A stretch of DNA of 52,057 bases. Source: a virus (Duplodnaviria > Heunggongvirae > Uroviricota > Caudoviricetes). The notes beneath the pieces are model-generated. The model had not been told where the DNA came from, ran no database searches, and saw only the letters and a list, made by a program, of their open reading frames with translations. The position numbers were made by a program, and so were the translations under genes. Each line of letters opens with the position of its first letter. Position 1 is the first letter of the stretch. The DNA lies in the IMG/VR virus record IMGVR_UViG_3300031951_000044, one strand, 5' to 3'. Shown here piece after piece: positions 12,481-52,057 of the stretch.

Positions 12481-12693
12481 TTATGGTGTTTGACAATTTA
12501 TTATTTCACATCCATTACCATCCACCGCTTTAATACAAAAAGTTTCCATAATATCATACGGTGGTGGTATAATAAAATCATATGGTAATGATGAAATTGT
12601 TGCTATCCAAAAACAGTTATCTTCATCAGAATCACAAACATAAATATCATATGGTGTCTGACCTGTTATATTATTTATTGTTACTTGTATCAT
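12481..12693 (-). CDS. Small Cys-containing virion protein (single beta-domain)
   Basis: 70 aa; similar to the N-terminus of 23202..23999; ATGA overlap with downstream gene. Confidence 0.65.
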   Translation of the reverse strand: MIQVTINNITGQTPYDIYVCDSDEDNCFWIATISSLPYDFIIPPPYDIMETFCIKAVDGNGCEIINCQTP

Positions 12694-36600: not shown

Positions 36601-38802
36601 ACCACCGTTAACAAATGAACCGCCAAAATCACCATCAAAATATTTTGCTTTAGTATTAAATAAATTAATTTTTTCAGCAAATGGTAACTCACATGCAAAA
36701 TACCTATCTTCCCCAAGATAAGAACCTAAGCCAATTACGGTGTCAATTCGATTTATGTACATAGATGTATGTCTCCAAGGACTATTAAAAGAATCTTGTG
36801 CATTTCCAGTTATTGAATTAGTTGGTTGCCCAAAATATCTACCGGCTTGTAAAACCAATGCAACATTTTGATCAACAACATCGCCTTGGGTGAGGCATGG
36901 TGTGTTTAAATTAACCGATGTAACATCTATTGGTGCCAACAACAGCCCCGTATTGCCCACATCTTCAATTCCGGGGACTTCATCATTTACCGCTGAATTA
37001 CTATCTGTTACATCCGATTTACAATCTTCACATAATGAACAATCTGGATATGTTAACATCGGTAATCTAAGGGTTAAAATATCTTTACACTCGATTGGTT
37101 CTGGACATGGTTTTCTTCTTAAACCTAAACTTCTTAATAATCTACATGCTGGTATGATTATTGAATTATAAATTCTACAAAATAATCGTGAAATGAATGC
37201 TATTAAATGAATCGGTATTAATAAACCAAAAATTAAAAAATAAATAATCAATAAAAATATTGATGATATCGTATAAAATAAATTAGTATTTCTTACACCA
37301 TCTGTGGTTGGAAACTTATTATTTTCGCTTTCACATCTCGTATCAGTAATTTCTTTTATTCCAATAAATCTTTGTTTACCAGTACCATTATGGTATTGGT
37401 CAATTAATTGTGATACTGTATATAATTTTTTGTATTTAAACACATAAAACTTATCAACACAATTAATTGCATCAAAAATCATTTGATTTCCAATTGTCGT
37501 CCCAGTATTACCATAGTCATTCCAATCTAAACTAAAAGCATATGATGCTAAAACATCAAAAGGAATTGTTGATGGTGGTTGATTTGTATCTTGTGCTGTT
37601 GGTACTGGGTCATCATCTGATGATGTCCAACCATATTCTCGTATATTTGGAACCAAGTAATAACCTCTTTTTGTTCCCTCAGATAAATCAGAAGATTGTT
37701 GCCATTTAACTTTAAATCGATATTTTGCTGAGGTTGGAATACCGATTGATGGATTAGCACTTAATATCGTTTCACCAAATTCATTTGTTGTTACAAAGTC
37801 CAAATTCATTGGTAAATCAACAACCCAAGTACCGTCTTCATCGATTACTCTACCACCGTTTTCTAATCTGAACTCTTCTAAAACTGGTCGATTATTATCA
37901 TCTAAAAAAATTGTTTGTCTTATTGCCAATATTTCTCCCGGACCAGCAACCAAATTACATAAATCACCACCTTCAGATGCTGGTTTACATCTTCTTTTTA
38001 TCTTATATTTATCAGCATCTGAAATCATGGAACCGATAAAAACAGATGTCGGTTCAATCTCAATACCCAATTTTCTTAAATCGAAATCCAAACGATGAAT
38101 TTTGGTTTGACATAAATCTTCTTGTCCCCAAAATGGTTCAACTGATATTTCAATTACTTCACTTACAATTTGTGGTAATGAATCAAGATTTTCTGATGCT
38201 TTAAAAAGAGTACCATCAATTTGTGTTTGTGTTGCACGACCCATTCTTATCAAATCTTGTGGCGATAATGAAAATGGTCCCATATCCGATAAATCTAAAT
38301 CCATAAAAACCGTTTGATTACCAAGTGGTACTCCAAATATCATATAATCACCACTTTCGTTTGTTTTAACCGTGAATTTATAATATTTGTCATATATTTC
38401 AATAACTGTATTATCAACCAAAACATCATTTATGGATGGAAATGTTCCTGTTGGTGTATGACCAGCATGTTGTTTTATATATGGTAAAAGATTATAACGA
38501 TATCCGTCTTCGTTAACATCAGAAACTTTTCTATAAGGATATAAAGTTGATATTACAGGATTTAAAGCGTCTTCATCGGATATTGGTACAAATACGCTAA
38601 TTTTAGCATTTGGAATACCGTAACCACCATTTGCTATTACCCTACCAGTGATTACTCCAAAATCAGCGCAAGATCTTGGATATATTTCTTCGGGTCTAAA
38701 TTTTAAAGAAAGAATTTCAAGAAAATCATAATCCTGTTCTAAATTAACCTGTATTTGTTTGTTAATTCCAAGCTCAGTCCTTATCCTATACGATTTTCCC
38801 AT
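33688..38802 (-). CDS. Large baseplate/tail-associated protein with N-terminal carboxypeptidase-regulatory-like beta domain and an internal hydrophobic segment
   Basis: 1704 aa; ITGRVIANGGYGIPNAKISVF...TVKTNESGDYMIFGVPLG; hydrophobic run LFYTISSIFLLIIYFLIFGLLIPIHLIAFI. Confidence 0.6.
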   Translation of the reverse strand: MGKSYRIRTELGINKQIQVNLEQDYDFLEILSLKFRPEEIYPRSCADFGVITGRVIANGGYGIPNAKISVFVPISDEDALNPVISTLYPYRKVSDVNEDGYRYNLLPYIKQHAGHTPTGTFPSINDVLVDNTVIEIYDKYYKFTVKTNESGDYMIFGVPLGNQTVFMDLDLSDMGPFSLSPQDLIRMGRATQTQIDGTLFKASENLDSLPQIVSEVIEISVEPFWGQEDLCQTKIHRLDFDLRKLGIEIEPTSVFIGSMISDADKYKIKRRCKPASEGGDLCNLVAGPGEILAIRQTIFLDDNNRPVLEEFRLENGGRVIDEDGTWVVDLPMNLDFVTTNEFGETILSANPSIGIPTSAKYRFKVKWQQSSDLSEGTKRGYYLVPNIREYGWTSSDDDPVPTAQDTNQPPSTIPFDVLASYAFSLDWNDYGNTGTTIGNQMIFDAINCVDKFYVFKYKKLYTVSQLIDQYHNGTGKQRFIGIKEITDTRCESENNKFPTTDGVRNTNLFYTISSIFLLIIYFLIFGLLIPIHLIAFISRLFCRIYNSIIIPACRLLRSLGLRRKPCPEPIECKDILTLRLPMLTYPDCSLCEDCKSDVTDSNSAVNDEVPGIEDVGNTGLLLAPIDVTSVNLNTPCLTQGDVVDQNVALVLQAGRYFGQPTNSITGNAQDSFNSPWRHTSMYINRIDTVIGLGSYLGEDRYFACELPFAEKINLFNTKAKYFDGDFGGSFVNGGIGGANQIKVYVEPNLNNSATTYHLDNTYILIVDPETLENYTQGRLVSFQDFLLSNDFNVTGNSGNSIIGSGNTGLTQINVTYANPQDTPLVLNPTPLSTTYNVNFTEGSPEYKYPTDIEYFQVITGMTYTEFMSKVNPSGVNDLASRYLNYIVNIKRSRKLFTPLTQLGFPPYNFTTLLPVDSSCPPIQPYGNLSICDNTITDVCSLSAITAFNNYQNFGVIILNRGVDVNTERVNISYDLSRIFGYTTYTDNNIVNGNYKLNVPIQPNYRLANHNNLSNNANDGDYFNRFIYYPSYNTDFNTSFSSYTTNLHTYYSSLDLSSVTSNFTVNNNYPWTQLTVGHITVAAGSQLELRTGGPISSAFIGCGGYFETTFGGSDIGEYIEGGSYTYQRPEGYFVYDQNCVSTPSSPNANNCDNNEETFIYFAPKYDSGNTLTVSASTRLVFRSDRLPTSTNLDQDFVYFGLFGNQNNSAPGQQNNNFFIYLYGEDSTGEGIGQPWLDSAVDVEVTSDVDGNTISDTQDDYDNNSGGPNISGIINSLSCESLVDLSCYQNGTPATLSETASTDNCNRTGPNIAVDNGCYILVKRAILDLNPLQENNDFAQLGEWVGRLRLNLGACLGVISHTFVNSWVNGVLYHFAIKNNRFFDNQNNQPYSLYCSDVVILDPNTNNYYYRSSPYNTTFNQFIGKSTINSVQDKNLLYPTTIMDLGPLNSYTNELIYGPEYEGYVANKLKPTSYQDVTEILQLFFLSRLTNANSLALALGVGQNSGVAALFKNQRGDSKKRIDGDYAQSIQINSQFGVFEFSPDQYNNSDIYFGGNADGGLLGIFFDGDNQNRDLISPRRLIFSESPLVGQQIPIFTQKVPYYKWYIEPNTSLIFGNQNNDWSMSIGSHPYQLLDRISSDFFRGNANSAEESYRGFITNVNPSGTNISLLGSSGPNPTIIGGPWYFYFGLKNAATAIDKFYLKYVE

Positions 38803-39068
38803 TTCTTCTTTAACGATAAATAGTTGATGATGTTTTTTTAGAAAACATACAACAATTTATATTAAATTAAATATAAATTAATTGAATTTTATGGTGATTA
38901 TTGACATTGTAACCCAATTAAATTTAGTAATACATATTATCATACAAAAAAAGAAAATGGATAATGAAATTTGGAAAGGTGATAAAAGTACAAGGTGTTT
39001 GGTTAAAAAAATATCATTTAACTGTAAAAAATAATCACAAATGATTACAACTGGATTTGGAAAATAAC

Positions 39069-39827
39069 TCATTTTAAATTATGAACCACCTTCATTTTAT
39101 AAATTTTCTTTTTAAAGTTGTTTATTTCACCTTTGATTCGTTTTTCGCTATAAGATGCAAAATCTTCCTTTGATTTAAATTTTTTAATAAATGGAATATT
39201 AGAACTCTTTATTTCGTTCCATTTTTTTTCTGATAAATTTTTATTAAAATCAAAGTTATTTATTTCATTTAAATCTTTAATAAATGAATTTAGTGTTTCA
39301 CTGTCATCATACATATTTTCTAAATAAGCGTCTTGTTCAACTTTTGAAGTAATGTAATAATAATATAAAATTAATTCTAGTGTATTATCTGAACCACCAA
39401 AAACATTTATTACAAATTTTTCAAAATCTGGTGTATATAAATCTTTAATAAAATTACTTTCTTTAAATGGTTTTGATTTATTTAAATAACGCATTAAGTC
39501 TTGATATGCGTGTTTAAATTCATGTTGGATAAAAGAAACGCTACTATTAATTGTTATATAAACGGTATATAAACCTGTTTTTTTATCATAACCTGATTTT
39601 TGTTCATCATAATGTGGTATTCCATTTAAAGTAACAACCATTTTATCAATTGGAAAATCTTTATATTGTTCTGGGTAATCTTTACCCAAAATTATAATCT
39701 TATCTTCCTCAGTATCTAAAAATTTCATAACAATAGGTGTCCATACTCTAGATTTTGACGTAATGCCACCACTTTCAGTTAAATTATATAAATATTTAAG
39801 TTGACTTTCTGTTATTATAATTTTCAT
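39069..39827 (-). CDS. Putative zincin metallopeptidase with 'IITESQL' leader
   Basis: IQHEFKHAYQD (HExxH) with downstream EQDAY; N-term MKIIITESQLKYL. Confidence 0.55.
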   Translation of the reverse strand: MKIIITESQLKYLYNLTESGGITSKSRVWTPIVMKFLDTEEDKIIILGKDYPEQYKDFPIDKMVVTLNGIPHYDEQKSGYDKKTGLYTVYITINSSVSFIQHEFKHAYQDLMRYLNKSKPFKESNFIKDLYTPDFEKFVINVFGGSDNTLELILYYYYITSKVEQDAYLENMYDDSETLNSFIKDLNEINNFDFNKNLSEKKWNEIKSSNIPFIKKFKSKEDFASYSEKRIKGEINNFKKKIYKMKVVHNLK

Positions 39828-39829
39828 TT

Positions 39830-40180
39830 TTAGTTATAATTTTCATCAATATATTTTACTAATTTTTCTAAGGATGCCATTTTAATTCTTTTATCGTTTT
39901 TAGAATTACGGGGTTCAAAATCTTTATTTACAAATGTAAATATACCAAATGTCATTTGTATTCTACCAATAAACTGATTGTTTTTAGTAACATCCCATAA
40001 TGGAAAAAATCCATTAATCTGGTTTGCAACTGTGGAACCAATCTCTAAATATTCTTGGAACGAATCCTCAGTAGAGGATTCCGGACCCGGTTTAATACCA
40101 ATAAGTTCATTAATATTTTTTTTATTTTGGTACATTTCCAAAATAGCTTGTTTTTCGGTTTTAGAAATTTTAAAATTCAT
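39830..40180 (-). CDS. Hypothetical protein with leader-like N-terminus
   Basis: 116 aa; MNFKISKTEKQAILEMY. Confidence 0.6.
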   Translation of the reverse strand: MNFKISKTEKQAILEMYQNKKNINELIGIKPGPESSTEDSFQEYLEIGSTVANQINGFFPLWDVTKNNQFIGRIQMTFGIFTFVNKDFEPRNSKNDKRIKMASLEKLVKYIDENYN

Positions 40181-40324
40181 ATTTTAATTGTATTAATTGT
40201 TTATTTATCAAAAATAAGTAATATGACTGATATTTGCAAAATTACCTATTTGATAAATATATCCAAAAAAAAAAGATTGATTTTTTTTAAAAAATTTTAT
40301 TTTATTTTTAATTCAACATATAAA

Positions 40325-42163
40325 TTATGAAAAGCTAACACCTTTAAAATTCTTAACCCTTACCGTAATATCTTTTTGAGGATATCTAATTTGATAAATT
40401 TGTTTTGGTTCTGCAAAAAGTGTATCATCAATCGGTTGAATTTGTTTGGTGTTGTTATCCAAATAGGGTTGAGATGTTTCTGCTGATGAATATTGTCCGC
40501 CTACCTTATTAAAGAAATCCAATGATGTTATTGTAATAACGCCATTTAATGATTGAATCAATCTTCTTATTTCGGATATATAAGCATTTTCACCAAGTTG
40601 TCTTGTTAAAGGATTAAAATAAGTTGTTATTGTATTAATAATATCAGAAACAACCGCACCTTGATTTTGTGTTGCATCTAAAACAACTGAAACATCAACA
40701 GTTAAATCAATAACTTCAGCGGTTTCAATTGAAACATAATCATTTATCATTCTATAGTTCGATAAATAATTAGCTAAATTATTTTTTAATGTATTTGAAA
40801 CTATTTGTGTTAATTTACCCGAAGAATCAAATGATAATATTTTAACCTTAATTTTATTATCTTCCTCAACAATTGCAACTTTTGCTGGTGCGCCAAATTG
40901 TCCCGGCATTTTTCTAATTAATGCTTCATAATCGCTTATTGTTACCGCTCTATTTTGTGCGGAAAAATTAAATGAAACATAATTCCTAACCTCTTCTAAT
41001 GTTGGTGCATTTGCTCCACCAATAGCTGCGGTAACGTTTGAACATCTTAATGAATTTATAACTGAGGTATTAACACTTTGTGATGGACCGTTAACCGCAA
41101 AATTTGCTGTATTAACTTGTGTGATTACGTTAACACCTAAATTCGTTGATAAACCGCCACCAACTCGATATTGAACAAATAATGTTGTGTTAGGTTTTAG
41201 TGCGGAACCTAACGCCATATTATTTTGATATTTTTGTATATTAAGCGGAGTTCCTAATCTGGTAAACTCCCTAAGTTGCTCTTCAGCACTTACATTACCA
41301 CCACCAAATGTCATTTTCAAAAATCCTTGAGGGGTAAATTCTGTTATAAATCGTTGATTTGTTGTTATGTATTTTCCAACCTTAATTCCGGGTTGGTCTG
41401 ATGGTTTTGTTGGGTCTTCGATAAAAATTCTATCTTCAACAAGAGCATCAACTTCATACCATCTTCCTGAAGTACCAAGAAATTCTTGTACTGAAGGAAC
41501 ATTAGCATATGATACACCATCTTTTTGAATAACCGATGTAACACCCAAAACATTCTTTTCTGGTAAAAATAAGTCAAGAAATGGTCTAACATCAGCATTT
41601 GTTATAACTTTTTTGAACACCTTTGTGATACCATTAACAACAACATCTCTTTTAACTATGGTATAATTTATAAGAATATTGTTTGCATCAAAATTTGGAA
41701 TTTTTAATCTGTTTGGGAACCCTTCATTATTAAAAGGTGACGCAAAATCAATATCGTGAACGGTTTCAAAAATTTGTCCCGCACCCGATACCTGACTTCC
41801 CCTTCTTAATATTCCCAAATATCTTTCATCTTCTTTATCACCAAAAACTGGAACCGTAATTGAAAAATCAACGAGCGCAACAGAAGGTCTTTGACCCGGT
41901 ATTTTTAATCCGTAAGTTCTTGCGATATTAAAAACTGATGATTTTTGTTGCGCATACTGTAATACCGTTTCTTGTATGCTTCTATCAATATGAAAATGTA
42001 AGTTATCTGTGACAGCAGCATTTAAATCCATTAAAACAGAAAATACCGAAGCATCATTAAAATTGCTAATTAAGTCGGGATAATACGTATTAACATAATT
42101 AATTAAATCTTGTCTTATTGCAACAAAATCTCTATCGGTATAATTTATTCTTCTTTCTGCCAT
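40325..42163 (-). CDS. Baseplate wedge subunit (T4 gp6 / baseplate J-like)
   Basis: NYTDRDF..IRQDL N-terminus; VQYRVGGG..TN; GGANAPTLEEVR...QNRAVTISDYEAL; directly downstream of the gp25-like gene. Confidence 0.85.
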   Translation of the reverse strand: MAERRINYTDRDFVAIRQDLINYVNTYYPDLISNFNDASVFSVLMDLNAAVTDNLHFHIDRSIQETVLQYAQQKSSVFNIARTYGLKIPGQRPSVALVDFSITVPVFGDKEDERYLGILRRGSQVSGAGQIFETVHDIDFASPFNNEGFPNRLKIPNFDANNILINYTIVKRDVVVNGITKVFKKVITNADVRPFLDLFLPEKNVLGVTSVIQKDGVSYANVPSVQEFLGTSGRWYEVDALVEDRIFIEDPTKPSDQPGIKVGKYITTNQRFITEFTPQGFLKMTFGGGNVSAEEQLREFTRLGTPLNIQKYQNNMALGSALKPNTTLFVQYRVGGGLSTNLGVNVITQVNTANFAVNGPSQSVNTSVINSLRCSNVTAAIGGANAPTLEEVRNYVSFNFSAQNRAVTISDYEALIRKMPGQFGAPAKVAIVEEDNKIKVKILSFDSSGKLTQIVSNTLKNNLANYLSNYRMINDYVSIETAEVIDLTVDVSVVLDATQNQGAVVSDIINTITTYFNPLTRQLGENAYISEIRRLIQSLNGVITITSLDFFNKVGGQYSSAETSQPYLDNNTKQIQPIDDTLFAEPKQIYQIRYPQKDITVRVKNFKGVSFS

Positions 42164-42171
42164 TTTAATAA

Positions 42172-42633
42172 TTAAATATTAAGAATAATAAAATCTGTGG
42201 AACCAAAAGCACTACTTGTATCAACATAATCGATTCTTACTTTTGCTGTATATTCATATGTTTGTTTTGCCGGTTCTCCAACAGTTCTATTAATCACATT
42301 ACCCGCAGTTGTAACAAAGGATGAATCTTCTTCGCTACTTGCTGCTGTTACGGTAATATTTTTTATTTGTAGTTGAGGTATAAATTTTTCAACCGCTTCT
42401 CTAATATCAGATTCAATACTACCAAAAGTGGGACCATCCAATGGTTCAAAGATATATTCATAAAGTCTGGTACCAAAGTCGGGAAGATAATATCTGGTTC
42501 CTTTTTTTGTAAGTAATAAATGAATCAAATTTGAACGCAATTCATCATTTGTGTAGTTGGATAACTCCAAATATTTCCCCTCTGAGGATTCTCTAAAGGG
42601 AAATATTATACCGTATGTTTTTCCTTCCGCCAT
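42172..42633 (-). CDS. Baseplate wedge/sheath-initiator protein (T4 gp25-like)
   Basis: SNLIHLLLTKKGTRYYLPDFGTRLYEYIFEP...IREAVEKFIP, the GPW_gp25 signature. Confidence 0.9.
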   Translation of the reverse strand: MAEGKTYGIIFPFRESSEGKYLELSNYTNDELRSNLIHLLLTKKGTRYYLPDFGTRLYEYIFEPLDGPTFGSIESDIREAVEKFIPQLQIKNITVTAASSEEDSSFVTTAGNVINRTVGEPAKQTYEYTAKVRIDYVDTSSAFGSTDFIILNI

Positions 42634-42655
42634 TTAAAATAGTGATTCGTTAACA

Positions 42656-42701
42656 ATAAATATAGTAGAATAACAATTTTTAGAAATGGTATAATATTTA
42701 T
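42656..42701. promoter_or_regulatory. Divergent candidate promoters: ATATTTAT on minus (42656..42663) and plus (42694..42701) strands
   Basis: The same 8-mer faces outward toward both flanking genes; the same arrangement occurs at 51855..51862 and 51907..51914. Confidence 0.45.
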
Positions 42702-42746
42702 GGTTATGAAAAAGATTAAATTAACAGAATCAGATTTATATAGGAT
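42694..42746 (+). repeat. 53-bp dispersed exact repeat, copy 1 (promoter motif + start of leader)
   Basis: atatttatggttatgaaaaagattaaattaacagaatcagatttatataggat, identical to 51907..51959. Confidence 0.9.
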
Positions 42747-43599
42747 TGTTAGAAAGGTTCTTCTTGAGCAAGAGGAAGAAAATAACAGAAGAATCTTCAA
42801 TAAGAATCCAGAATATTTTAAAACGATTCTTGAAAATGTATTTAGAAATGATTCTGAGAAATTAACAAGAGTTTTTAATAAACAATATGATAAGGTTATT
42901 ATTAATGGGGATTTGGATTTAAGAGATACACAAATTCAATCATTACCGGATAATCTTCATGTTGGGGGAAGTTTGTATTTACAAGGAACACCAATTCAAT
43001 CCTTACCGGATAATCTTCATGTTGGGGGAAGTTTGTATTTAAGAGGAACACCAATTCAATCCTTACCGGATAATCTTCGTGTTGGGGGAAGTTTGAGTTT
43101 AGTAGGAACACCAATTCAATCCTTACCGGATAATCTTCATGTTGGGGGAAATTTGAGTTTAGTAGGAACACCAATTCAATCCTTACCGGATAATCTTCAT
43201 GTTGGGGGAGATTTGAGTTTAGTAGGAACACCAATTCAATCCTTACCGGATAATCTTCATGTTGGGGGAGATTTGTGGTTAAATGAAACACCAATTAAAT
43301 CCTTACCGGATAATCTTCATGTTAAGAAAAATTTGGAGTTATATGATACACCAATCCAATCCTTGCCGGATAATCTTCATGTTGGGGGAAATTTGAATTT
43401 ATATGGATGCAAAAATCTTAAATCCTTACCGGATAATCTTCATGTTGGGGGAGATTTGAGTTTAGTAGGAACACCAATTCAATCCTTACCGGATAATCTT
43501 AAGGTTGTAGGTGTTATTTCAATCGGTGGAACTCCGTTAAATAATGATATTGATTTGATTTTGAAATATCAGGTAAAGGGTTATAGGTTTTATGTATAA
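42706..43599 (+). CDS. Leucine-rich-repeat protein (10 x 20-aa repeats) with MKKIKLTESDL leader
   Basis: Repeats GTPIQSLPDNLHVGGxLxLx; start placed at 42706 by identity with the paralogue start at 51919. Confidence 0.9.
   Translation: MKKIKLTESDLYRIVRKVLLEQEEENNRRIFNKNPEYFKTILENVFRNDSEKLTRVFNKQYDKVIINGDLDLRDTQIQSLPDNLHVGGSLYLQGTPIQSLPDNLHVGGSLYLRGTPIQSLPDNLRVGGSLSLVGTPIQSLPDNLHVGGNLSLVGTPIQSLPDNLHVGGDLSLVGTPIQSLPDNLHVGGDLWLNETPIKSLPDNLHVKKNLELYDTPIQSLPDNLHVGGNLNLYGCKNLKSLPDNLHVGGDLSLVGTPIQSLPDNLKVVGVISIGGTPLNNDIDLILKYQVKGYRFYV
42906..43520 (+). repeat. 60-bp coding tandem repeat, 10 units
   Basis: Units aligned on consecutive 60-nt lines (core ccaattcaatccttaccggataatcttcatgttggggga); one unit has a 3-nt insertion. 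Confidence 0.95.
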
Positions 43600-43604
43600 A
43601 ATTA

Positions 43605-43637
43605 AAAAAATCCCCAACTTATGATTGGGGATTTTTT
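43605..43637. terminator. Bidirectional intrinsic terminator between convergent genes
   Basis: 13-bp perfect stem aaaaaatccccaa / ttggggatttttt with 7-nt loop; A- and T-tracts on both sides. Confidence 0.85.
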
Positions 43638-43828
43638 AATTTTGTATTTCCTTTTTGCGCTCTTGGTTCATAAGGACAATGTAAACAACCGGAACCACAA
43701 CAATAACCTCGTTTTTTATGAAAATTTTCGGTCATAACTTTTTTACCATCCGAATTGACATAAAAATCAGAATCTTTATTTTGCAATGTTTCTTTAATGT
43801 ATTGTTCTGTTATCCAATCGTTTTTCAT
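43619..43828 (-). CDS. DUF5522-like small Cys-rich protein
   Basis: FHKKRGYCCGSGCLHCPY motif. Confidence 0.8.
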   Translation of the reverse strand: MKNDWITEQYIKETLQNKDSDFYVNSDGKKVMTENFHKKRGYCCGSGCLHCPYEPRAQKGNTKLKNPQS

Positions 43829-43886
43829 TTCTATTTTTCATTATTTTTTTTTAATGTTATCATTTAAAATAATTAAAAAAATTTAA

Positions 43887-46838
43887 TTATTTTATTGGAC
43901 AAGCACCGGTATCACAATCCATAATTGTAAACTCATCTTCTTTAACCTCAATAGATGTTATTTGTTTAATATTTTTTATCATATCATCATATTGTTCTTT
44001 TGTTATTGTTTCATATGGTGCTTGATCAAAACCATGTCCATAATATAGAAGGAATGATACAGTTTTTATTTCATGTTTAAAATGTTCACGTAAGTAATTT
44101 TTAATATCATCAATATCTTCTTTTTTATAATAAACAGTGCAGCTAACCGAATTATCCGACCATTCAGCTTGCATTCTTCTTACCATATCTAATTGTTCTT
44201 TCCAAGTATAATTTGATGCTACAGGTGTTTCATCCGGAAGTTTACATGGGAAAGATATTACCATTGTGGTTTTGTCCTCAGTACCATCATAATTTCTTTG
44301 GTATTCTATTGGAAATCCATGTTTCCTACATACATCAATTAATGTAGATTGTGATGAAATTCTAATTCTTCTAATATAATACGGTCCAGCAGGATTTGGA
44401 TGTACTCCCGGTGTTACTCCTGCTAAAAGCGAAAGTGTACCGGATGGCTTAATAGTGGTAAGTTTTATACTATTTGGAAAACCATGTTTTTTTGAATATT
44501 CCACATCATATTTTCTTAACCATTCATATGCAGAACTTAACCAAGACCTTTGTTCTTCGGTTGCCTGTAAAACACCGGTCATTCCAATACCCATTCTCAT
44601 ATTTCGATTAACAATTTCTTCAGTTTCTTTTAAAGAACATTTTAATGCCAATGAGTGTTTATTCATTCTATAAGCATATGTTAAGGCTTCCAATAATTGA
44701 TCATATGTTTCAATGTTTGGTAGATAAACTTCAGCTAGACAACAGGTCTCAAAATTAGCTAATGATTGTTCTGCACAATTATGTGTTACAACCCCAGTAT
44801 CATAAAATGCGTGTGTTTCATCATTGACAGTTATATCATAAACATCCTCTACCGAATATTCTGGTTCGATATCGATTACTGTAACATAATCTTTGTATCT
44901 ATAAATCGGTTTAATTTCATGTTTTTCTAATAACTCATTTTTAAATTTAGATAAAAACCCAATCTGTTTAAATTGACCAGCATATACATTAATTTTAAAA
45001 CATGTGGAATTATTTCTCATTTTTCCATCTTTTCCAACATAAACTCGACCATTATTATGTGTTGTTATTGTATTATGAATACCAAATTCGTTTAAAATTG
45101 TCGAAACAACTTCCAAAATATTTCTATTAACAGAATAAAGTTCAACATTATTCATTTTTCTAACTGAGCCGTCAGCGGTGAAAATAGCTCGAATAAAACC
45201 AAGTTTAAATGATTTAGATTTTCCATACAACCATTTTAAGTCCATTTTATTAGTTGGCATTCCAATATCAGATAATGATTTTGATAAATCATTTCTATGC
45301 GATGAAAAATATAAACATGTGTTTGGTTTTTGTTCATGAGGTTTTGTCTTTACATTTAACATTTGTTCAAAATAAGAAACGACATCCATTTCATTAATAC
45401 CAAAACACATACCGACCGTATAACCAACATTATCTAATCGTTTACTATACCATCCATCACCCTGAACCCATCCCGCGAAAGTACCTAATTTATAATCTTC
45501 TTCATTATCTATATCAAAAGACGTATATATTGGTTTATTTTCCCACTTTAATTGATTACCAATTTCTAATTTATCCATTCTAACCCAATTACCATCTCTA
45601 TCCATATGAAGATGATTATCGGTACCATATAGATAAGAACCATTAGACAATAAAATTCTATTCACAACCCTATTTTCCCCTGTTTTAAATGGTTTTGTTG
45701 CTTTTTTCCACTGACCATCAATTCCTAAAACGGTAAGCTCATCCTCATTAAGTGCTTGTTCAAACGTAATATATCCCTTATTTGTTAAAATAAGCGAATT
45801 TAAGGGTTTGCAAGGATTAAATCCTTCAACTTCAGGGTCCGGATATTGATTTTCTCCAGTTCTACCAACACTTCTAGCTAATTCTAAATTAATCAATCCA
45901 TATGGTTCGCCTTGGTTATAAGTATCCCAAAATTCTTTAGGTAAATCATCAATATTTTCTGGCGCAACGATTGAATTATTACTCATCGCTCTCCAGTTTG
46001 GAATTTTATATAAATCCCATCTTTTTGCTTTTAAAAATTCAATATCATCAAAATCACCAATTGCGATTTGTGCCGATCTTCGGACGTTTCCGGCGACCAC
46101 AATATTACCGATAATATTCATAATATCAAGACAATCAATAGGTCTTAATTTTTTATTTGAGCGTGAATTTAATATTTTGTTAATTTCACTTATACCCCAA
46201 CATAAATCTTCGGGTCCAGATGCGGTTCCCCCGAACCCTTTTATTACCGCACCTTTAGACCTAATACAAACAGTAGAATATGTAAAACCCTCACCACCAT
46301 AAAAATGTGCTTTAAGTACTTTACCCAAAAGTTTAACCCACCCTTCTCTGCTATCCGGAACAATAAAATCCGCATCATTTGTGTCTTTTCTTTCAATTTT
46401 AATTTTATTTTTCAACTTTGGTAATTGATACACATTATGTTTTTGAATATTGTAACCAACACCGCTACCTAACATTAACATTTCAAAACACCAAGTAAAT
46501 GGTCTTATTGGTGAATTAACAACGGTAAAAGCACAGTTTTGTAAAGATGGTAAACCTAATCTATCAACCGTTTTAGTCCCCAATTGCCACATAAATCTAC
46601 CAGCAGTTGAAAACTTAAGGTTCATGCGTAATTCCGCATATCTTTTTTTCTCGTCTTCTGTAAACCCAACATTTAATTGTTTTTCTGATGCCTCTAATTC
46701 TCTTTCAATTACTTGCCAAAACTCTTCAGTTTTTGACAAAGGGTCATCTTCTTTTAATCTTCTAGCGTATGTTCTCTTAAATGTTATATAACCAATTTCA
46801 CCCCAAGGCGGGGTAATTTCTTTAAATTTACTGTCCAT
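43887..46838 (-). CDS. nrdJ: Class II (adenosylcobalamin-dependent, RTPR-type) ribonucleotide reductase containing an intein
   Basis: LQNCAF, VVAGNVRRSAQI, GEPYGL, NP[intein]CAEQSL..FETCCLAE, TTIKPSGTLSLL, C-terminal CDTGACPIK cysteine pair. Confidence 0.92.
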   Translation of the reverse strand: MDSKFKEITPPWGEIGYITFKRTYARRLKEDDPLSKTEEFWQVIERELEASEKQLNVGFTEDEKKRYAELRMNLKFSTAGRFMWQLGTKTVDRLGLPSLQNCAFTVVNSPIRPFTWCFEMLMLGSGVGYNIQKHNVYQLPKLKNKIKIERKDTNDADFIVPDSREGWVKLLGKVLKAHFYGGEGFTYSTVCIRSKGAVIKGFGGTASGPEDLCWGISEINKILNSRSNKKLRPIDCLDIMNIIGNIVVAGNVRRSAQIAIGDFDDIEFLKAKRWDLYKIPNWRAMSNNSIVAPENIDDLPKEFWDTYNQGEPYGLINLELARSVGRTGENQYPDPEVEGFNPCKPLNSLILTNKGYITFEQALNEDELTVLGIDGQWKKATKPFKTGENRVVNRILLSNGSYLYGTDNHLHMDRDGNWVRMDKLEIGNQLKWENKPIYTSFDIDNEEDYKLGTFAGWVQGDGWYSKRLDNVGYTVGMCFGINEMDVVSYFEQMLNVKTKPHEQKPNTCLYFSSHRNDLSKSLSDIGMPTNKMDLKWLYGKSKSFKLGFIRAIFTADGSVRKMNNVELYSVNRNILEVVSTILNEFGIHNTITTHNNGRVYVGKDGKMRNNSTCFKINVYAGQFKQIGFLSKFKNELLEKHEIKPIYRYKDYVTVIDIEPEYSVEDVYDITVNDETHAFYDTGVVTHNCAEQSLANFETCCLAEVYLPNIETYDQLLEALTYAYRMNKHSLALKCSLKETEEIVNRNMRMGIGMTGVLQATEEQRSWLSSAYEWLRKYDVEYSKKHGFPNSIKLTTIKPSGTLSLLAGVTPGVHPNPAGPYYIRRIRISSQSTLIDVCRKHGFPIEYQRNYDGTEDKTTMVISFPCKLPDETPVASNYTWKEQLDMVRRMQAEWSDNSVSCTVYYKKEDIDDIKNYLREHFKHEIKTVSFLLYYGHGFDQAPYETITKEQYDDMIKNIKQITSIEVKEDEFTIMDCDTGACPIK
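44778..45812 (-). mobile_element. Intein with LAGLIDADG homing endonuclease in RNR (345 aa)
   Basis: Starts CKPLNSLILT, ends VVTHN before +1 Cys; LAGLIDADG motifs FAGWVQGDGW and FIRAIFTADGSV. Confidence 0.92.
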
Positions 46839-46856
46839 TTTATTATATATTTTTTA

Positions 46857-49307
46857 TTAATTTATTGTTGTTCTTTTTTTATTAGATTGTAATTCACCTA
46901 ATCGTTTTTTTGCATTCATTTCATTAATTTCTTCAACCTCTTTTTCATGACCTAATAATGTTTTTGATTCCTCTGTATCAATAATAAGCATTTCATTGTC
47001 AAATTTGCAGTTTGCAAACACCACACCATCAGAACCAATTCTTGATTTTGTAATTGCAATTGTCGCAAGTTTTTGGTCTTTTTGTTCAAGAGATTTAGCA
47101 ATTGATATGATAACGTGACCAACTTGTGCTTTTTTAATGCTACCACCCATTTGGTCAGTTGTTACAACATCTGCTGAAATACTGGATCGATTACCTTGGG
47201 TCGCGGTCCATCCAACAATATCCAATTCATGACACATTGCTTCAAATGCTCTGATAACCGAACCCTCACCCTTCCATTCATCACCATTGAATTTTTCTGG
47301 TAATACACAATCGATATAATCCAAGCAAATTAAATCAATCTTAACGCCCTCAGAAATTATTTTTCTTACCTGATTTTTAATGTTTGACATGGTTAATGAT
47401 TCTGAAGGTAACTTCTTTAGAATCAATTTATTGGGTAAGGTACTTCTCAACTCTTTAACCGTTTCCAAAACTTCTTCCTTATTTGCGGTCAAATCATCGG
47501 GTTTAATTCCGGTCCACATCGTAAAATGCTTGCGCTGAATGATTTTTGGATTGTCTTCAAAGAAGATTTGAAGGACATTGAAACCCAAATTATATGCGTG
47601 ATTTGCAATTTTTGTCATTACGGTTGTATTATGTGTTAACACATAATCTCTAGTAACATATAATTCATCAGGATTTGATACTTTTATGCAAACAGCTTCT
47701 TCATCGTGAGAATAGTTTATTGATTTAATATATTTTTGTTCAATATATTTTTTTCTTTTTACGAACCTATTTACTTTTCTTAACAACTTAAACGGAACAA
47801 TATTATTTGCAAACGATATTGTTACAGTATAAGCCATTTTACCATCCTTTACCTCACCTTTATACTTATATTTAGGTATTTTTGTTTTAATTTTAGCTGT
47901 ACCACCTAAAGAAAGAACAATTTCTCTAACATCTTTTGCTAATTGTTCTGAAACAGTTGTAAATTGACAACAACCTCTTTTATCCGCATAACCATCAGTA
48001 TCCATTAATCCTCTCAATAATTCAAGTCTATTATTTACTGAATTAAAAATATAATCTTTCGGTATAAACTTTTGGTCAGATTTCATACCAAGTAAACCAT
48101 AATGAGTTAAATGAGGTTTAATAACATTTTTAATGCGAACAACTTTAATTGTTTTAGTGTCCCTATGGTATTCAGAAAATGATGTGTGTAGATTTAAATT
48201 AGAAATATTATCAAATATTTCATCATCTTTAGTACTTAAAGTAATACTATCTTTTGCAGATAAATAACCATCCCCCAATAAAATACCCAATAAATAAGGA
48301 TTAATTAATATATCTTTTTCGTTAAAATTAATAGGATTAACAATAGGTAGTCTATAATTATATCTACCTCGTTTTTTTATATCAACTAACATATCGCTAG
48401 TTTTAATCACTTTATACCCATAATTCGGAGCATAGTTATTCACATTTTTTATGCGTGTTTTTCTTGTACGCATGTTTAATGTATTAACATACCATAAATG
48501 TTCTGCATCACAAAAAGTATGTGTATCATCAGTAAATTCAATTTTATAAATTGGACGTTGACCTTGCGGATAAACGCCAATCACATATTGTTCATTACCA
48601 TCGGAACCAATTATTTTATCACCAAGTTTAATATTTCCTATTTCGGTCCAACCTGTTGGTGTTAAAATTGGTTCACTAACATTTTGGGCTTTGCCCACCC
48701 CTGTCGGGGCGAGAATAACACCAATTTCACCCCTCGCTAAACCACCCTTTAAGAGCTTATCAATACCCTTAATACCCATCGCAATCGGATGTCTGAAATC
48801 CTCACTTAAAACGCCCTCAGTATCGTCAAAAACATCTATCTGACCCTTATCCAATTCACCAACCTGAAGTGCGTTCCTAACCAAAGATTCAACTTGGTCA
48901 TAATTTTCAAATTCACCACCATCGATAATTTTTTGTGCTTTAGTCATTACTTTTTTCAGTTCTTGTTGTTTACAAAACTTTAAAGCTTTTTCTTGTACAA
49001 ACTCAGCACCGTCAGTTGACACATTTTTTATTGATTCCAAGGTATCAATTGCAACCTTTACAAGAAAATCCTGTGCTAACTCAGATTTAATAATTTGTTT
49101 TAAAGTTGTAAATGAAGGAATTTCATTATATTTTCCATAATGTTCCTTAATAAATTGAACAACAATTTTAAAATACTTATTCTCGAAATAAGAGACTTCC
49201 ATAACGTCAATAATTGATGAGCCGAATATTTTGTCAATGATAATTTGGTTAATCAATTGAAGCTGAAATGTTTGTCCGAGATACTCGAAATTTTTATCTT
49301 TACCCAT
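46857..49307 (-). CDS. dnaB: Replicative SF4 (DnaB/T4 gp41-type) helicase containing an intein
   Basis: Walker A ILAPTGVGK[intein]TT; IFFED; Walker B LICLDYID; WTATQGNR. Confidence 0.9.
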   Translation of the reverse strand: MGKDKNFEYLGQTFQLQLINQIIIDKIFGSSIIDVMEVSYFENKYFKIVVQFIKEHYGKYNEIPSFTTLKQIIKSELAQDFLVKVAIDTLESIKNVSTDGAEFVQEKALKFCKQQELKKVMTKAQKIIDGGEFENYDQVESLVRNALQVGELDKGQIDVFDDTEGVLSEDFRHPIAMGIKGIDKLLKGGLARGEIGVILAPTGVGKAQNVSEPILTPTGWTEIGNIKLGDKIIGSDGNEQYVIGVYPQGQRPIYKIEFTDDTHTFCDAEHLWYVNTLNMRTRKTRIKNVNNYAPNYGYKVIKTSDMLVDIKKRGRYNYRLPIVNPINFNEKDILINPYLLGILLGDGYLSAKDSITLSTKDDEIFDNISNLNLHTSFSEYHRDTKTIKVVRIKNVIKPHLTHYGLLGMKSDQKFIPKDYIFNSVNNRLELLRGLMDTDGYADKRGCCQFTTVSEQLAKDVREIVLSLGGTAKIKTKIPKYKYKGEVKDGKMAYTVTISFANNIVPFKLLRKVNRFVKRKKYIEQKYIKSINYSHDEEAVCIKVSNPDELYVTRDYVLTHNTTVMTKIANHAYNLGFNVLQIFFEDNPKIIQRKHFTMWTGIKPDDLTANKEEVLETVKELRSTLPNKLILKKLPSESLTMSNIKNQVRKIISEGVKIDLICLDYIDCVLPEKFNGDEWKGEGSVIRAFEAMCHELDIVGWTATQGNRSSISADVVTTDQMGGSIKKAQVGHVIISIAKSLEQKDQKLATIAITKSRIGSDGVVFANCKFDNEMLIIDTEESKTLLGHEKEVEEINEMNAKKRLGELQSNKKRTTIN
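47628..48689 (-). mobile_element. Class 3 (Ala1, WCT-triplet) intein with LAGLIDADG endonuclease in the helicase P-loop (354 aa)
   Basis: Starts AQNV; block B DAEHLW, block F AVCIKV, block G VLTHN; LAGLIDADG motifs LLGILLGDGY and LLRGLMDTDG. Confidence 0.88.
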
Positions 49308-49343
49308 GTGTGTTTGTTAGTTTGTATCTTCTAAATACTATGA

Positions 49344-49790
49344 TTATAGGATAATTCCAAGGTACTCGTTATTAAAATTTTTCTCAGAAAAAATGTCAGT
49401 TAAATTTCTTAAGACGTTTTTTGCTTCTGGTCGTACATCCATCGTATATCTAACCTTCGGAGGATATACTTTAGCATCAAATACTCTGTGACAAATTGTC
49501 TCATCATTTATCTTAACATAGATGTTAAATGTTTCGGGACCATCGGTATTTGAAGTTTCCATAATTTGAGGGTTCTCCTCAATCTCATAATAATTATCCA
49601 ACATATATGTTACCGTCTTAATTTTTAACTTCCTCTGAAGCAGTTCTGCGACATCTTTAATATATTCATATAATTCCATAGAACGTCTTGCTTGGGGATT
49701 ATAATCTTTAACATTAAAATATCTCTGAATTACAACGTTGTTATTAAGTTTAATTAAAAACTCCATTTTTGTTAAATCTTGCTCTTTCAT
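49344..49790 (-). CDS. Hypothetical protein
   Basis: 148 aa ORF between helicase and exonuclease. Confidence 0.65.
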   Translation of the reverse strand: MKEQDLTKMEFLIKLNNNVVIQRYFNVKDYNPQARRSMELYEYIKDVAELLQRKLKIKTVTYMLDNYYEIEENPQIMETSNTDGPETFNIYVKINDETICHRVFDAKVYPPKVRYTMDVRPEAKNVLRNLTDIFSEKNFNNEYLGIIL

Positions 49791-49805
49791 TTTTTTATAT
49801 TGTTT

Positions 49806-50801: not shown

Positions 50802-50809
50802 TAATAAAA

Positions 50810-51253
50810 TTAATTAAATTCAACAAATTCACCTTCTTCATTTACACTAAACTTATAATGAATATCTGGTTGCTTTTCTTTAGTTAAATTTATTTGAATT
50901 TCAGACATTTCATTTGTTGGTGTATTTAAATCAACGGGGACGCTTTTTAAAATTTCATACTTCATATTATTCCCAAAATAAATAAATTCAACATCACAAT
51001 CCGGATGTGAGGGTTTTTTTAGTGTAAGAAGTTTTGTATTCGGTTTCGAATTAAAAATTTTATCTAGAAGATTGATTTTTTCATTTTCATCATTAAAAAA
51101 TCCCCAACCAAACCATTTTTTATTTGGTTTTTCCAACTCTTTTTCATAAAACTTAATTGCTTTATTTTTAATAATAATTAAATGAGGTGGTTCAAAATTA
51201 TCTTTAAATAACTTATTATATTGAACCATAATAGATGTTCCGAAAGTATTCAT
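50810..51253 (-). CDS. Hypothetical protein
   Basis: 147 aa ORF tiling between neighbours. Confidence 0.55.
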   Translation of the reverse strand: MNTFGTSIMVQYNKLFKDNFEPPHLIIIKNKAIKFYEKELEKPNKKWFGWGFFNDENEKINLLDKIFNSKPNTKLLTLKKPSHPDCDVEFIYFGNNMKYEILKSVPVDLNTPTNEMSEIQINLTKEKQPDIHYKFSVNEEGEFVEFN

Positions 51254-51282
51254 TGTTTTATATTTTTGCTAAAATATAACAA

Positions 51283-51831
51283 TCAAAACTCATCAAGTCC
51301 AAATCTATCTTTAAATTCTTTTCTTTCTCTTTCAACTCTTTGTTGATATTTAACAAATTCATCGTCGATTTTTTCATAAGACAAAGGATAGACATTAGCT
51401 AGAGGTATAACTCTGCTTTCATAATTACCACCACCAAGTGCTTTATCGCTTGGTTCAAAACGTTTAAATTTAACACTAACATAGGGAATGTCATCAAAAT
51501 ACTGTATAGAGGGAAGTAAATACCCCTCTTCACCCGCAAACTCTTCTGAAAATTTACTTTTAACCGCTTGTTCCTTTAAATCCTTTATCTTAACCTTTAT
51601 TTCAAGCATTCCAAATGTATTACCCTTTTCTTCATAAATTCTTGATAACATTAATCGTTTTAGCTTTTGTGTGTCACCACTTCTTCCAAGCAACGTTAAT
51701 TTATCAATTTCACGTAATCTATTAAAATCACCAATTTTTGATAAATTATCAAGCGCAATGTCTTGATATTCATCTTTTTGCTCATTGGTATATTCCAATA
51801 ATATTTTTTTTATTAGTCGTCTTTGATTCAT
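51283..51831 (-). CDS. Hypothetical protein with leader-like N-terminus
   Basis: 182 aa; MNQRRLIKKILLEY; ATATTTAT motif 24 nt upstream. Confidence 0.6.
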   Translation of the reverse strand: MNQRRLIKKILLEYTNEQKDEYQDIALDNLSKIGDFNRLREIDKLTLLGRSGDTQKLKRLMLSRIYEEKGNTFGMLEIKVKIKDLKEQAVKSKFSEEFAGEEGYLLPSIQYFDDIPYVSVKFKRFEPSDKALGGGNYESRVIPLANVYPLSYEKIDDEFVKYQQRVERERKEFKDRFGLDEF

Positions 51832-51906
51832 GACTTGGGGTGTCTATTTAAACCATAAATATCATATGAATCTTGTTTATTAAAGACGTGCTTTTTACTT
51901 TTAATG

Positions 51907-51959
51907 ATATTTATGGTTATGAAAAAGATTAAATTAACAGAATCAGATTTATATAGGAT
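51907..51959 (+). repeat. 53-bp dispersed exact repeat, copy 2
   Basis: Identical to 42694..42746. Confidence 0.9.
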
Positions 51960-52057
51960 AATTAAACAAGTTCTTTTTGAACAGGAGGAAGAAAAGAGAA
52001 GTTTTACATTTTCTCCGGGAGCATTTGCATCTTTTATAACATCATCATCAGGTGAAA
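51919..52057 (+). CDS. Paralogue of the LRR-gene leader (partial, runs off right edge)
   Basis: Hand translation: MKKIKLTESDLYRIIKQVLFEQEEEKRSFTFSPGAFASFITSSSGE... Confidence 0.75.
   Translation, partial: MKKIKLTESDLYRIIKQVLFEQEEEKRSFTFSPGAFASFITSSSGE

Follow-up and report, generated by a model that had tools for sequence, protein, structure and literature searches.

Phage proteins that diversify to meet the host are known mainly as DGR targets and tail-fiber cassettes. In lampreys and hagfish, the LRR-based VLRs arise by somatic assembly of cassettes into an incomplete germline gene. LRR proteins of other kinds have been described in bacteria. Vibrio FlrP is bound to the polar flagellar rod (8Z5U, chain 0; bioRxiv 10.64898/2025.12.04.692373); it carries a Sec signal (M1-A19) and serves as a periplasmic structural spacer (bioRxiv 10.64898/2025.12.04.692373). 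A "novel" LRR class is defined by the conserved segments VxGxLxLxxNxL and VxGxLxLxxNxxL (PMC8181103). The LRR loci of Flavobacterium psychrophilum comprise many paralogues of 2-14 repeats with hypervariable positions on one face (PMC10392669). In T4, the internal proteins have just a capsid targeting sequence in common (PMC3012670), and Alt is processed at ITE-6 and LTE-619 (PMC5694885).

Here we describe an LRR protein gene in a 52,057-nucleotide stretch of viral DNA (IMG/VR record IMGVR_UViG_3300031951_000044, hereafter the window). The gene belongs to an uncultured giant T4-like lake phage; judged by the CheckV completeness of related fragments, its genome would be ~300 kb long, and many LRR paralogues are dispersed in it. 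SprB-repeat fiber proteins suggest, as no more than a guess, a host among the Bacteroidota. We consider it likely that the gene belongs to a dispersed family of small LRR proteins without signal peptides, diversified by homologous recombination in this T4-like phage; delivery of its product is judged separately below. The ORF extends over 42700..43599 (+), and a start at 42700 would prepend MV to the protein. We place the true start at the ATG at 42706, because MKKIKL is kept across paralogues and the upstream ATG is missing in some of them. The features of the locus are as follows.

42172..42633, minus strand: left flank "a", a baseplate gp25-like gene (PF04965), divergent from the LRR gene
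42706..43599, plus strand: LRR protein gene, 297 aa plus stop, with the start set by paralogue comparison
42706..42780, plus strand: N-terminal leader of 25 residues, MKKIKLTESDLYRIVRKVLLEQEEE, with LTE at residues 6-8 and LLE at 19-21
42781..42939, plus strand: N-terminal cap domain of one strand, two helices and a first half-repeat, DLDLRDTQIQ (AF2 secondary structure)
42940..43482, plus strand: nine LRR units, eight of 60 bp and one of 63 bp, consensus SLPDNLHVGGxLxLxGTPIQ
43079..43169, plus strand: crossover interval; the sequence before it is identical to the gp25-side paralogue of L001, and the sequence after it to the DUF5522-side paralogue of L003
43483..43596, plus strand: degenerate tenth unit and C-terminal cap helix, the cap type being linked to the downstream flank
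43605..43637, no strand assigned: hairpin resembling a bidirectional terminator, where the LRR and DUF5522 genes converge
43619..43828, minus strand: right flank "x", a DUF5522 gene; next comes a class II RNR bearing an intein
51283..51831, minus strand: flank "c", a 182-aa gene upstream of the second paralogue
51919..52057, plus strand: 5' end of the second paralogue, which leaves the window edge (full length 231 aa, P0003)

The window protein is a true LRR protein of the VxGxLxLxx(N/T)xL class. Its coil core, V-x-G-x-L-x-L-x-x-T-x-I, spans 20 residues, and the nine units of 20-21 residues have V8, G10, L12, L14, T17 and I19. When the family profile was compared with the PDB, it matched FlrP (8Z5U, chain 0; E = 3.6e-43), a designed LRR (3.2e-12), SlrP (4e-7) and VLR-B (4.6e-6), and the alignment set the phage LdL..T.I..LP opposite LnL..N.I..LP of the designed LRR. 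The AF2 model (pLDDT 88.8, pTM 0.79) has two short strands per unit and helical N and C caps. Its cap-domain elements (E30-33, H35-45, H50-60 and E63-66) exceed a pLDDT of 90, and the leader region reaches just 62-75. The top Foldseek matches were all LRR proteins, the best being FlrP, Leptospira LRRs, IpaH and SspH1. The phage-encoded LRR solenoid that had been proposed from the letters alone is thus borne out by profile match, model and fold search. No Pfam LRR model scored above threshold on the window protein, Pfam and PHROGs scans of it returned sub-threshold noise alone, and a few homologues have PF23598, PF12799 or PF00560.

The likeness to FlrP is close: both are small single-domain beta-solenoids built on the same 20-residue repeat, LP-x-x-L-x-V-x-G-x-L-x-L-x-x-T (Foldseek TM 0.84 on target, 32% identity). 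However, the phage protein has a charged leader that lacks a hydrophobic core, and so no Sec signal of the FlrP kind; it also differs in its N-cap, its many recombining paralogues and its variable face. With the "novel" class it shares the unit V-G-G-x-L-x-L-x-G-T-P-I and, in its 21-residue unit, V-G-G-x-L-x-L-x-G-C-K-N-L, which correspond to the two published forms, but Thr mostly takes the place of Asn/Cys at the ladder position and the class was built on cellular, not phage, proteins. A single-protein genome scan returned three bacterial relatives only, the best from a Rhizobiales isolate (56% identity); an array-only alignment was too variable for such a scan. Among cultured phages, gp47 of Edwardsiella phage Edno5 (NC_054464.1) has seven units of the same type, with 60% identity over 145 residues. 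In contrast to the family described here, it is a single-copy gene of a temperate lambdoid phage, has no leader and ends in another C-terminal domain; it lies in an early operon beside cIII, exo and RecT. A tblastn match in Vibrio phage 367.14 was not counted as a homologue: it is a different, acidic 21-residue repeat in a region of 59% GC, termed LRR-like by its authors with an HHpred probability of 10%.

TRF places a 60-bp array at 42928-43507, with 9.6 copies and 87% matches. The sequence-only reading had counted 10 near-identical 60-bp units. The 60-bp array stands, but in codon register it consists of eight canonical 60-bp units, one 63-bp unit in which CKNLK replaces TPIQ, and, in tenth place, a degenerate cap unit; the count was thus slightly generous. 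The variable-codon sets listed at that time were exact on re-reading of the units, and the claim of a fixed scaffold with variation at three strand codons (11, 13 and 15) holds. Against an expected share of 15%, these codons carry 54% of the pairwise nucleotide differences among units 1-9 and 63% among the eight canonical units. Eight of their nine nucleotide columns vary, compared with 10 of 51 elsewhere (Fisher P = 1.3e-4). A minimum spanning tree of the units puts 17 changes in these codons, every one changing an amino acid, and 12 elsewhere. Smaller variation occurs at codons 16, 9-10 (GG to KK), 7 and 20.

The spread is also uneven in a larger sample of 435 units from 115 homologues. There, variability within proteins peaks at positions 15, 11, 13, 16 and 18; these make up 25% of the positions and account for 55% of the variation, and L2, L6, V8, L12, L14 and I19 are near-fixed. 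A strand is predicted at L12-x13, and register alignment to solved LRRs agrees with a concave placement. Sequence register and modeled secondary structure support the predicted placement of the variable residues at the exposed x positions of the concave xLxLx strand, as first proposed. The exposed residues show a bias toward Y, D, S, N, W and R, and such diversity would be expected of a predicted ligand-binding face. Over 45 distinct units, pN/pS, a crude measure on recombining repeats, was 1.63 at codons 11, 13 and 15 versus 0.76 elsewhere. Populations are not monomorphic at the window locus, where alleles differ. In five samples the unit map of P0003 is unchanged, indicating that not every copy is variable.

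Reshuffling by recombination between repeats and gene copies, likewise suggested beforehand, is strongly supported by mosaic alleles, moved identical units and exchanged flanks. The window is identical to L001 over 32706-43078 and to L003 over 43170-52057, and every difference lies inside the LRR gene. The flanks are 100% identical over 10.4 kb on the L001 side and 8.9 kb on the L003 side (~19 kb together). Identical 60-nt units recur in different paralogues and at different array positions. Over 16,714 bases, L006 and L007 show 2 differences, both within one unit, and the differing unit of L007 is identical to a unit of paralogue L004; L093 is a unit-number variant. Diversity thus arises by unit duplication and deletion, short gene conversion, and crossovers between paralogues on identical scaffolds of 40-80 nt. 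The two N-cap types (A and B) are swapped between paralogues, and a C-cap ending in GYRFYV is found solely beside DUF5522. Six flank combinations were seen around LRR genes.

gp25-DUF5522: the window
gp25-102aa: L001 and L002
EndoVII-DUF5522: L003 and L025
EndoVII-102aa: JGI 3300059473 and the divergent L015
182aa-159aa: L003
182aa-102aa: L079 and probably L081

A search for a predicted gp25-159aa junction gave no match, as the contigs end within the upstream gene. The exchanges map to long homologous stretches, and no recombinase domain was found among the window ORFs scanned by Pfam. The invertible G segment of Mu and C segment of P1 have a dedicated invertase and short crossover sites.

This mode of diversification can be set beside those of other LRR repertoires. 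Like the F. psychrophilum loci, the phage family has a conserved N-terminal peptide, strain differences within conserved flanks and signatures of recombination. However, the F. psychrophilum proteins are T9SS-secreted surface proteins with repeats of ~22 residues, encoded at one tandem locus with gene fragments joined by microhomology, whereas the phage genes are intact, dispersed and phage-encoded, their products cytoplasmic or virion-bound, and their crossovers fall in long homology. The VLRs share the LRR scaffold and the concave-strand variation, and their profile match is weak (E = 4.6e-6 for VLR-B). In contrast to VLRs, the phage copies are complete inherited ORFs and nothing points to programmed assembly: every LRR copy that is not truncated by the end of its contig is intact from leader through caps to stop codon, and no fragment cassettes were seen in the window.

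The leader is common to the LRR paralogues and at least seven unrelated cargo families. Residues 6-8 read (L/I)(T/S)E in the LRR paralogues and most other cargo, and LNE in one family; L/I-x-E occurs near residues 19-21 in most leader-bearing proteins. A gp21-type protease (PF03420, 1.3e-23) is present in a relative, G001. Three of the non-LRR cargo proteins with the leader were scanned with Pfam and seven with PHROGs, in neither case with a match, and tblastn of the leader alone against cultured phages gave no match. The arrangement resembles that of T4 IPI-III and Alt: small proteins that are otherwise unrelated and evolve fast carry a short conserved tag at the N terminus, L/I-T-E motifs occur, and the lineage has a gp21-type protease. 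It differs in that the tag is ~25 rather than ~10 residues long, with no detectable sequence homology, and in that T4 cargo is not LRR. A leader on unrelated proteins together with L/I-T-E motifs like T4 head-processing sites makes in-capsid delivery plausible. By this analogy, the leader may be a capsid-targeting and processing signal like that of the T4 internal proteins, a tentative reading to which we give somewhat less than an even chance. On this view, the head would take up the binders, the gp21-type protease would trim them, leaving new N-termini at Ser9 or Gln22, and they would be injected along with the DNA and bind host proteins.

Two alternatives concern how the variation came about or whether it is real. 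DGR mutagenesis of adenine-templated codons, of which the sequence-only reading had been reminded, is suggested by codon 11, which is always NNT (AGT/AAT/GAT), by the many variants one or two steps from AAN, and by an A in one allele at each of the two L006/L007 differences. Nevertheless, neither a reverse transcriptase nor a template repeat was found. The search covered part of the ~300-kb genome: five related IMG/VR records had no PF00078, most window ORFs of at least 120 aa had no RT domain by Pfam, and the window holds no second array copy to serve as template. Twelve adenine columns of the scaffold are invariant, and the variation shows no adenine specificity. Codons 13 and 15 vary at all three bases, which would need an AAA template, and adenine mutagenesis of such templates would yield stop codons. 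The L007 variant matches a unit of another paralogue exactly. Bordetella phage Mtd and other DGR proteins are likewise phage-encoded, with variation focused on a ligand-binding surface (predicted here), but the fold here is LRR, whereas one account of DGR targets describes the C-type lectin fold (PMC5006420). A DGR for the LRR array is not supported by the part of the genome covered, and we regard it as extremely improbable; neither a DGR nor programmed assembly appears to be involved in diversifying these genes. As the comparison DNA is short-read metagenome assembly throughout, the mosaics and swapped flanks could also be mainly de Bruijn chimeras of a real genome with one fixed arrangement. 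Most contigs terminate inside arrays or the common N-terminal domain, and paralogues share identical blocks of several hundred bases. Because such blocks exceed 141 nt and contigs end in arrays, some mosaics or junctions could be chimeric. In addition, IMG/VR 3300042691_036017 and L003 overlap head-to-tail at both ends, implying a circular graph path of ~52.15 kb. Against this, the junctions repeat across samples and assemblers (L001/L002; L003/L025; L031/L032/L033; L040), and the longest exact repeat within the window array is 80 nt, shorter than k = 141. EndoVII-LRR-102aa is the native order in the L015 lineage, which is merely 80-86% identical, and cap type is strictly tied to downstream flank. 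The window allele is also tiled at 0 differences by JGI contig L040 (window 40028-43420) and by L031, L032 and L033 (from 43144, 43145 and 43166, respectively, to 47828), with L040 and L031 overlapping by 277 nt, so the allele is not an assembly oddity. An exact-pattern search for it in viral and metagenome contig collections gave no match; these independent contigs were reached through protein look-ups of the flanking genes. Wholesale chimerism is accordingly quite improbable, though less so than a DGR.

Two further alternatives concern what the variation means. In one, there is no adaptive diversification: purifying selection and concerted evolution hold the scaffold, exposed sites drift, and the protein serves one fixed partner as a structural spacer or adaptor. 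In any solenoid the exposed positions can vary through relaxed constraint alone; FlrP, the closest solved relative, is such a spacer in the Vibrio flagellar motor; P0003 is invariant in five samples; and a pN/pS of 1.6 is modest, with few synonymous sites. However, near-identical units without synonymous change differ at exposed codons, including two-base changes in one codon; the sole two differences in 16.7 kb between L006 and L007 sit in one unit; and locus alleles differ while ~19 kb of flanks are identical. The bias of the exposed residues and the many paralogues per genome also speak against drift, which we consider unlikely. About as unlikely, or marginally less so, is that the LRR proteins work on the virion surface, as adhesins or as accessories in receptor binding, with a leader that docks to baseplate or fibers and with variation that tracks changes of the host surface. 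The LRR gene abuts the baseplate genes gp25 and gp6, the L001 LRR gene lies near a 663-aa M23 peptidase/lysozyme protein, and the tail-associated fibers of Goslar share an N-terminal module followed by LRR or carbohydrate-binding domains (PMC13742148). Yet the gene is transcribed away from the baseplate operon, with a terminator of its own, replication genes surround other paralogues, and the Edno5 homologue is an early-operon gene. For the 25 residues of the leader itself, the model gives a helix of low confidence and no folded docking domain, and the leader has protease-type L/I-T-E motifs.

In the preferred reading, a recombining family of LRR binders, the buried L/V/I/T residues and the SLPDNL turn stay constant, the exposed positions 11, 13, 15, 16 and 18 of the LxL strand and the following loop vary from coil to coil, and point changes are kept mainly at exposed codons. 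Crossovers would also swap the flanks of paralogues; inversion between copies in opposite orientation is the simplest form of this and would produce genome isomers and new hybrid binders together. It is conceivable, but in our judgment rather doubtful, that in giant T4-like phages these elements form one system: an inherited, leader-tagged LRR repertoire packed in the head and injected to neutralize variable host proteins, with opposed paralogues acting as homology-driven flip sites, each crossover giving a new hybrid face and the inversion of a large genome segment, and the population existing as structural isomers.

The scaffold here differs from those of DGR targets and tail-fiber cassettes: it is a short LRR, diversified by plain recombination among many paralogues of a giant phage. 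Assemblies break or may misjoin at such arrays, so gene order near them in published giant-phage bins needs caution. The tag of the LRR proteins, common to other small proteins, resembles a T4 head-loading signal. If these proteins are delivered binders, they would constitute a large unexplored class of phage factors for counter-defense or takeover, and would also amount to a natural library of compact scaffolds for binding.

The open reading frame of the LRR gene and the parts of its product are as follows:

42700..43599, +, open frame of 299 codons
first 25 residues, charged leader
about 50 residues after the leader, cap domain
nine repeat units, eight of 20 residues and one of 21 (CKNLK replaces TPIQ)
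C-terminal end, degenerate tenth unit and C-terminal helix
43605-43637, terminator-like hairpin between the LRR gene and the convergent DUF5522 gene

The ATG at 42706 is the true start, giving 297 amino acids, because all paralogues open with MKKIKL, some without an upstream ATG. Tandem Repeats Finder placed the 60-bp array at 42928-43507 (9.6 copies). Similarity upstream of this gene and its paralogue (42685-42705 versus 51898-51918) starts only ~10-12 nt 5' of the ATG (ATATTTAT-GGTT-ATG), and neither segment contains a Shine-Dalgarno sequence. The reverse complement of this element, ATAAATAT, resembles the T4 late-promoter core.

Pfam returned no above-threshold LRR match for the window protein. 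A 40-member family profile searched against the PDB matched Vibrio FlrP (8Z5U chain 0; E = 3.6e-43), as well as a designed consensus LRR, SlrP, SspH1, and VLR-B. According to its authors, FlrP is a typical LRR beta-solenoid that sits on the polar flagellar rod (bioRxiv 10.64898/2025.12.04.692373). The AF2 model of the window protein (pLDDT 88.8, pTM 0.79) is confident except for the leader and a single kink at the KK-bearing unit, and its best Foldseek matches are all LRR proteins. The unit pattern is V8-x-G10-x-L12-x-L14-x-x-T17-x-I19; the 20-residue unit fits VxGxLxLxxNxL and the 21-residue unit fits VxGxLxLxxNxxL, both published as conserved segments of a "novel" LRR class (PMC8181103). The profile, model, structural matches, and conserved segment together bear out the proposal that the phage encodes an LRR protein, one that belongs to the LRR superfamily and is related to FlrP. 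In an HMM alignment with the designed LRR, L12-x-L14 lies over the concave-strand LxL and T17 over the Asn ladder, so positions 11, 13, 15, 16, and 18 are predicted to be x3, x5, x7, x8, and x10 of the classical segment. This concave-face placement is based on register and secondary structure rather than on model coordinates.

Differences between units are concentrated in the strand codons, whose variable sets the sequence-only reading had named exactly. Codons 11, 13, and 15 of 20 carry 54-63% of pairwise nucleotide differences (15% expected), and 8 of their 9 nucleotide columns vary, versus 10 of 51 elsewhere (Fisher P = 1.3e-4). When the units are joined in a minimum spanning tree, these codons account for 17 changes, every one altering an amino acid, and the other codons for 12. 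Units 3, 4, 5, and 9 have no synonymous differences among them, and their variation is confined to codon 11 (S, N, or D) and codon 7, which encodes R in unit 3 and H in the rest; units 5 and 9 are identical. Nor is variation evenly spread across the 435 units of 115 homologues, where within-protein variability is highest at positions 15, 11, 13, 16, and 18 and scaffold positions are almost invariant. The variable residues are mostly D, S, Y, N, W, and R.

The reminiscence of diversity-generating retroelement (DGR) mutagenesis did not hold up. No reverse transcriptase domain was found in Pfam scans of most window ORFs of at least 120 amino acids (a partial genome), five related IMG/VR records (all partial genomes) gave no PF00078 match, and the window has no second array copy usable as a template. 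Twelve scaffold adenine columns are invariant across units, which counts against a DGR because array-wide adenine-directed mutagenesis would strike them. Codons 13 and 15 vary at each of their three bases, which also counts against it because an AAA template would be needed and adenine mutagenesis would turn it into stops. On this evidence, DGR mutagenesis of the array is very unlikely.

Reshuffling between units and paralogues, as had been proposed, is visible in the window allele itself, which is a mosaic whose units recur elsewhere. Window 32706-43078 is identical to the metagenome contig L001, whose gene beside gp25 is a paralogue of 176 aa and four units, and 43170-52057 is identical to the contig L003, in which the gene on the DUF5522 side differs in its N-cap and first units. 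The window type is confined to 91 nt (43079-43169), and all differences from L001 and L003 lie within the LRR gene. In the unit maps, units turn up again in other genes and at other positions, and 14 different 60-nt units have exact copies in two or more places. Between contigs L006 and L007, which come from different samples, 2 of 16,714 bases differ; both differences alter amino acids and fall within a single unit, 19 nt from each other. The L007 version of that unit exactly copies a unit in the paralogue L004, which points to a short gene conversion. Contig L038 carries one substitution, D to N, at codon 11 of unit 5. The 231-aa paralogue P0003 has one unit map in five samples (L087-L091); contig L093, which lacks three units flanked by two near-identical ones that share their variable residues (SMYLNR), is a unit-number variant such as unequal crossing over would produce.

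Whole flanks also appear to be exchanged. Left flanks are gp25 (a), EndoVII (b), or a 182-aa gene (c); right flanks are DUF5522/RNR (x), 102aa/202aa/KTSC/M23 peptidase (y), or 159-aa LRR/thioredoxin (z). Pairs joined through an LRR gene are:

a-x, window
a-y, L001 and L002
b-x, L003 and L025
b-y, a 17-kb JGI contig and the lineage L015
c-z, L003
c-y, L079 and probably L081 (upstream flank cut, gave no match)

Within the population, flanks are 100% identical wherever DNA is comparable, and the C-cap type always travels with the downstream flank. The simplest viable model would be inversion between oppositely oriented paralogues; deletion between direct copies would cost the phage its terminase and portal genes.

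The DNA used for comparison consists entirely of short-read assemblies, in which most contigs stop within arrays or the shared N-cap. Because identical blocks hundreds of bases long are shared between paralogues, some junctions may be chimeric. That the mosaics and exchanged flanks are wholesale an assembly artefact is nevertheless improbable: the same junctions appear repeatedly across samples and assemblers, the longest exact repeat within the window array is 80 nt, and b-y is the native order in the divergent L015 (80-86% identical, colinear with both sides). The window allele is also tiled with zero mismatches by L040 (40028-43420) and L031/L032/L033 (from 43144). Separately, the 42,874-bp contig IMGVR_UViG_3300042691_036017 (L017/L020) starts at L003:10489, in P0003, and runs to L003:1209, in the paralogue on the DUF5522 side; identity is 100% at each end, so the two contigs close a circular graph path of ~52.15 kb. 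A third paralogue (233 aa) lies reversed inside L017/L020. A real isomer, a tangle, and a misjoin could each account for the circle.

The neighbourhood of the LRR gene is phage. The gp25 baseplate gene lies beside it, preceded by a 612-aa gene whose cultured-phage relatives are annotated as baseplate wedge, the closest being from a Flavobacterium phage at only 27% identity. Downstream come a class II RNR with an intein, a helicase-like gene that contains a homing endonuclease, and a 5'-3' exonuclease. Terminase_6N, Portal_T4, and a prohead protease of the gp21 type are encoded on related contigs. By CheckV, related 24-73 kb fragments are 8-24% complete, which implies a genome near 300 kb. GC content is 30.5%. 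LAGLIDADG homing-endonuclease domains occur in the RNR (43887-46838, -) and the helicase-like gene (46857-49307, -), with an intein-splicing match on the RNR only; the insert is absent from the 619-aa RNR of relatives L026, L027, and L028. SprB repeats in large proteins upstream of the baseplate genes, one of them with RCC1 repeats, hint at a Bacteroidota host, and a sulfotransferase gene lies among them:

10578-12479, 24003-26135, 12690-15326, and 18202-19023, all -, SprB/RCC1-repeat and sulfotransferase genes region

All LRR paralogues have the leader in common, at the protein and DNA levels. It also begins unrelated orphan proteins, at least seven in number and 133-445 aa long, that are encoded on large IMG/VR phage contigs (up to 258 kb); those scanned had no Pfam or PHROG match. 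Non-LRR proteins with the leader (MKKI..L[TSN]ESDLY..I..) are:

L048, L052-L054, L056, L057, L060, L061, L064, L066, L071, and L073
L009:14617-15090, -

Residues 6-8 are (L/I)(T/S)E in the LRR paralogues and most other cargo and LNE in one cargo family, and most leader-bearing proteins have another L/I-x-E around residues 19-21. In T4, internal head proteins all reach the scaffolding core via a capsid targeting sequence, the only part common to these diverse proteins (PMC3012670), and gp21 cuts after Glu, for example in Alt at ITE-6 and LTE-619 (PMC5694885). With a gp21-family protease found in a relative, the leader is suggestive of a parallel to T4 capsid targeting and processing signals, a likeness known here from sequence alone. 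The literature searched held nothing linking LRR proteins with the capsid targeting sequence. Two leader-bearing paralogues, L014/L069 (233 aa) and L015:424-1299 (-; 291 aa), have in place of the usual C cap a common basic tail (…KRGPAN…KQKWS…KRGKANTIDQK.KWST.LTRGKANTLL).

Homologues without the leader also exist. That of the cultured temperate phage Edno5 sits in an early operon beside cIII, exo, and RecT, which favours an intracellular role for the type of LRR repeat that Edno5 and the window share. Other metagenomic proteins fuse the same kind of 20-residue LRR array, leaderless, to a conserved ~150-residue C-terminal domain with no Pfam match:

P0004, P0005, P0006, P0009, P0014, P0016, and P0043
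L076, with only two LRR units ahead of the domain

A few homologues carry PcfJ-like (PF14284) or DUF6745 (PF20530) domains.

Although related to FlrP, the window protein is no equivalent of it, because it lacks a signal peptide and is phage-encoded. In its evolutionary behaviour, the window gene resembles the hypervariable LRR loci of Flavobacterium psychrophilum (PMC10392669) more closely than lamprey VLRs.
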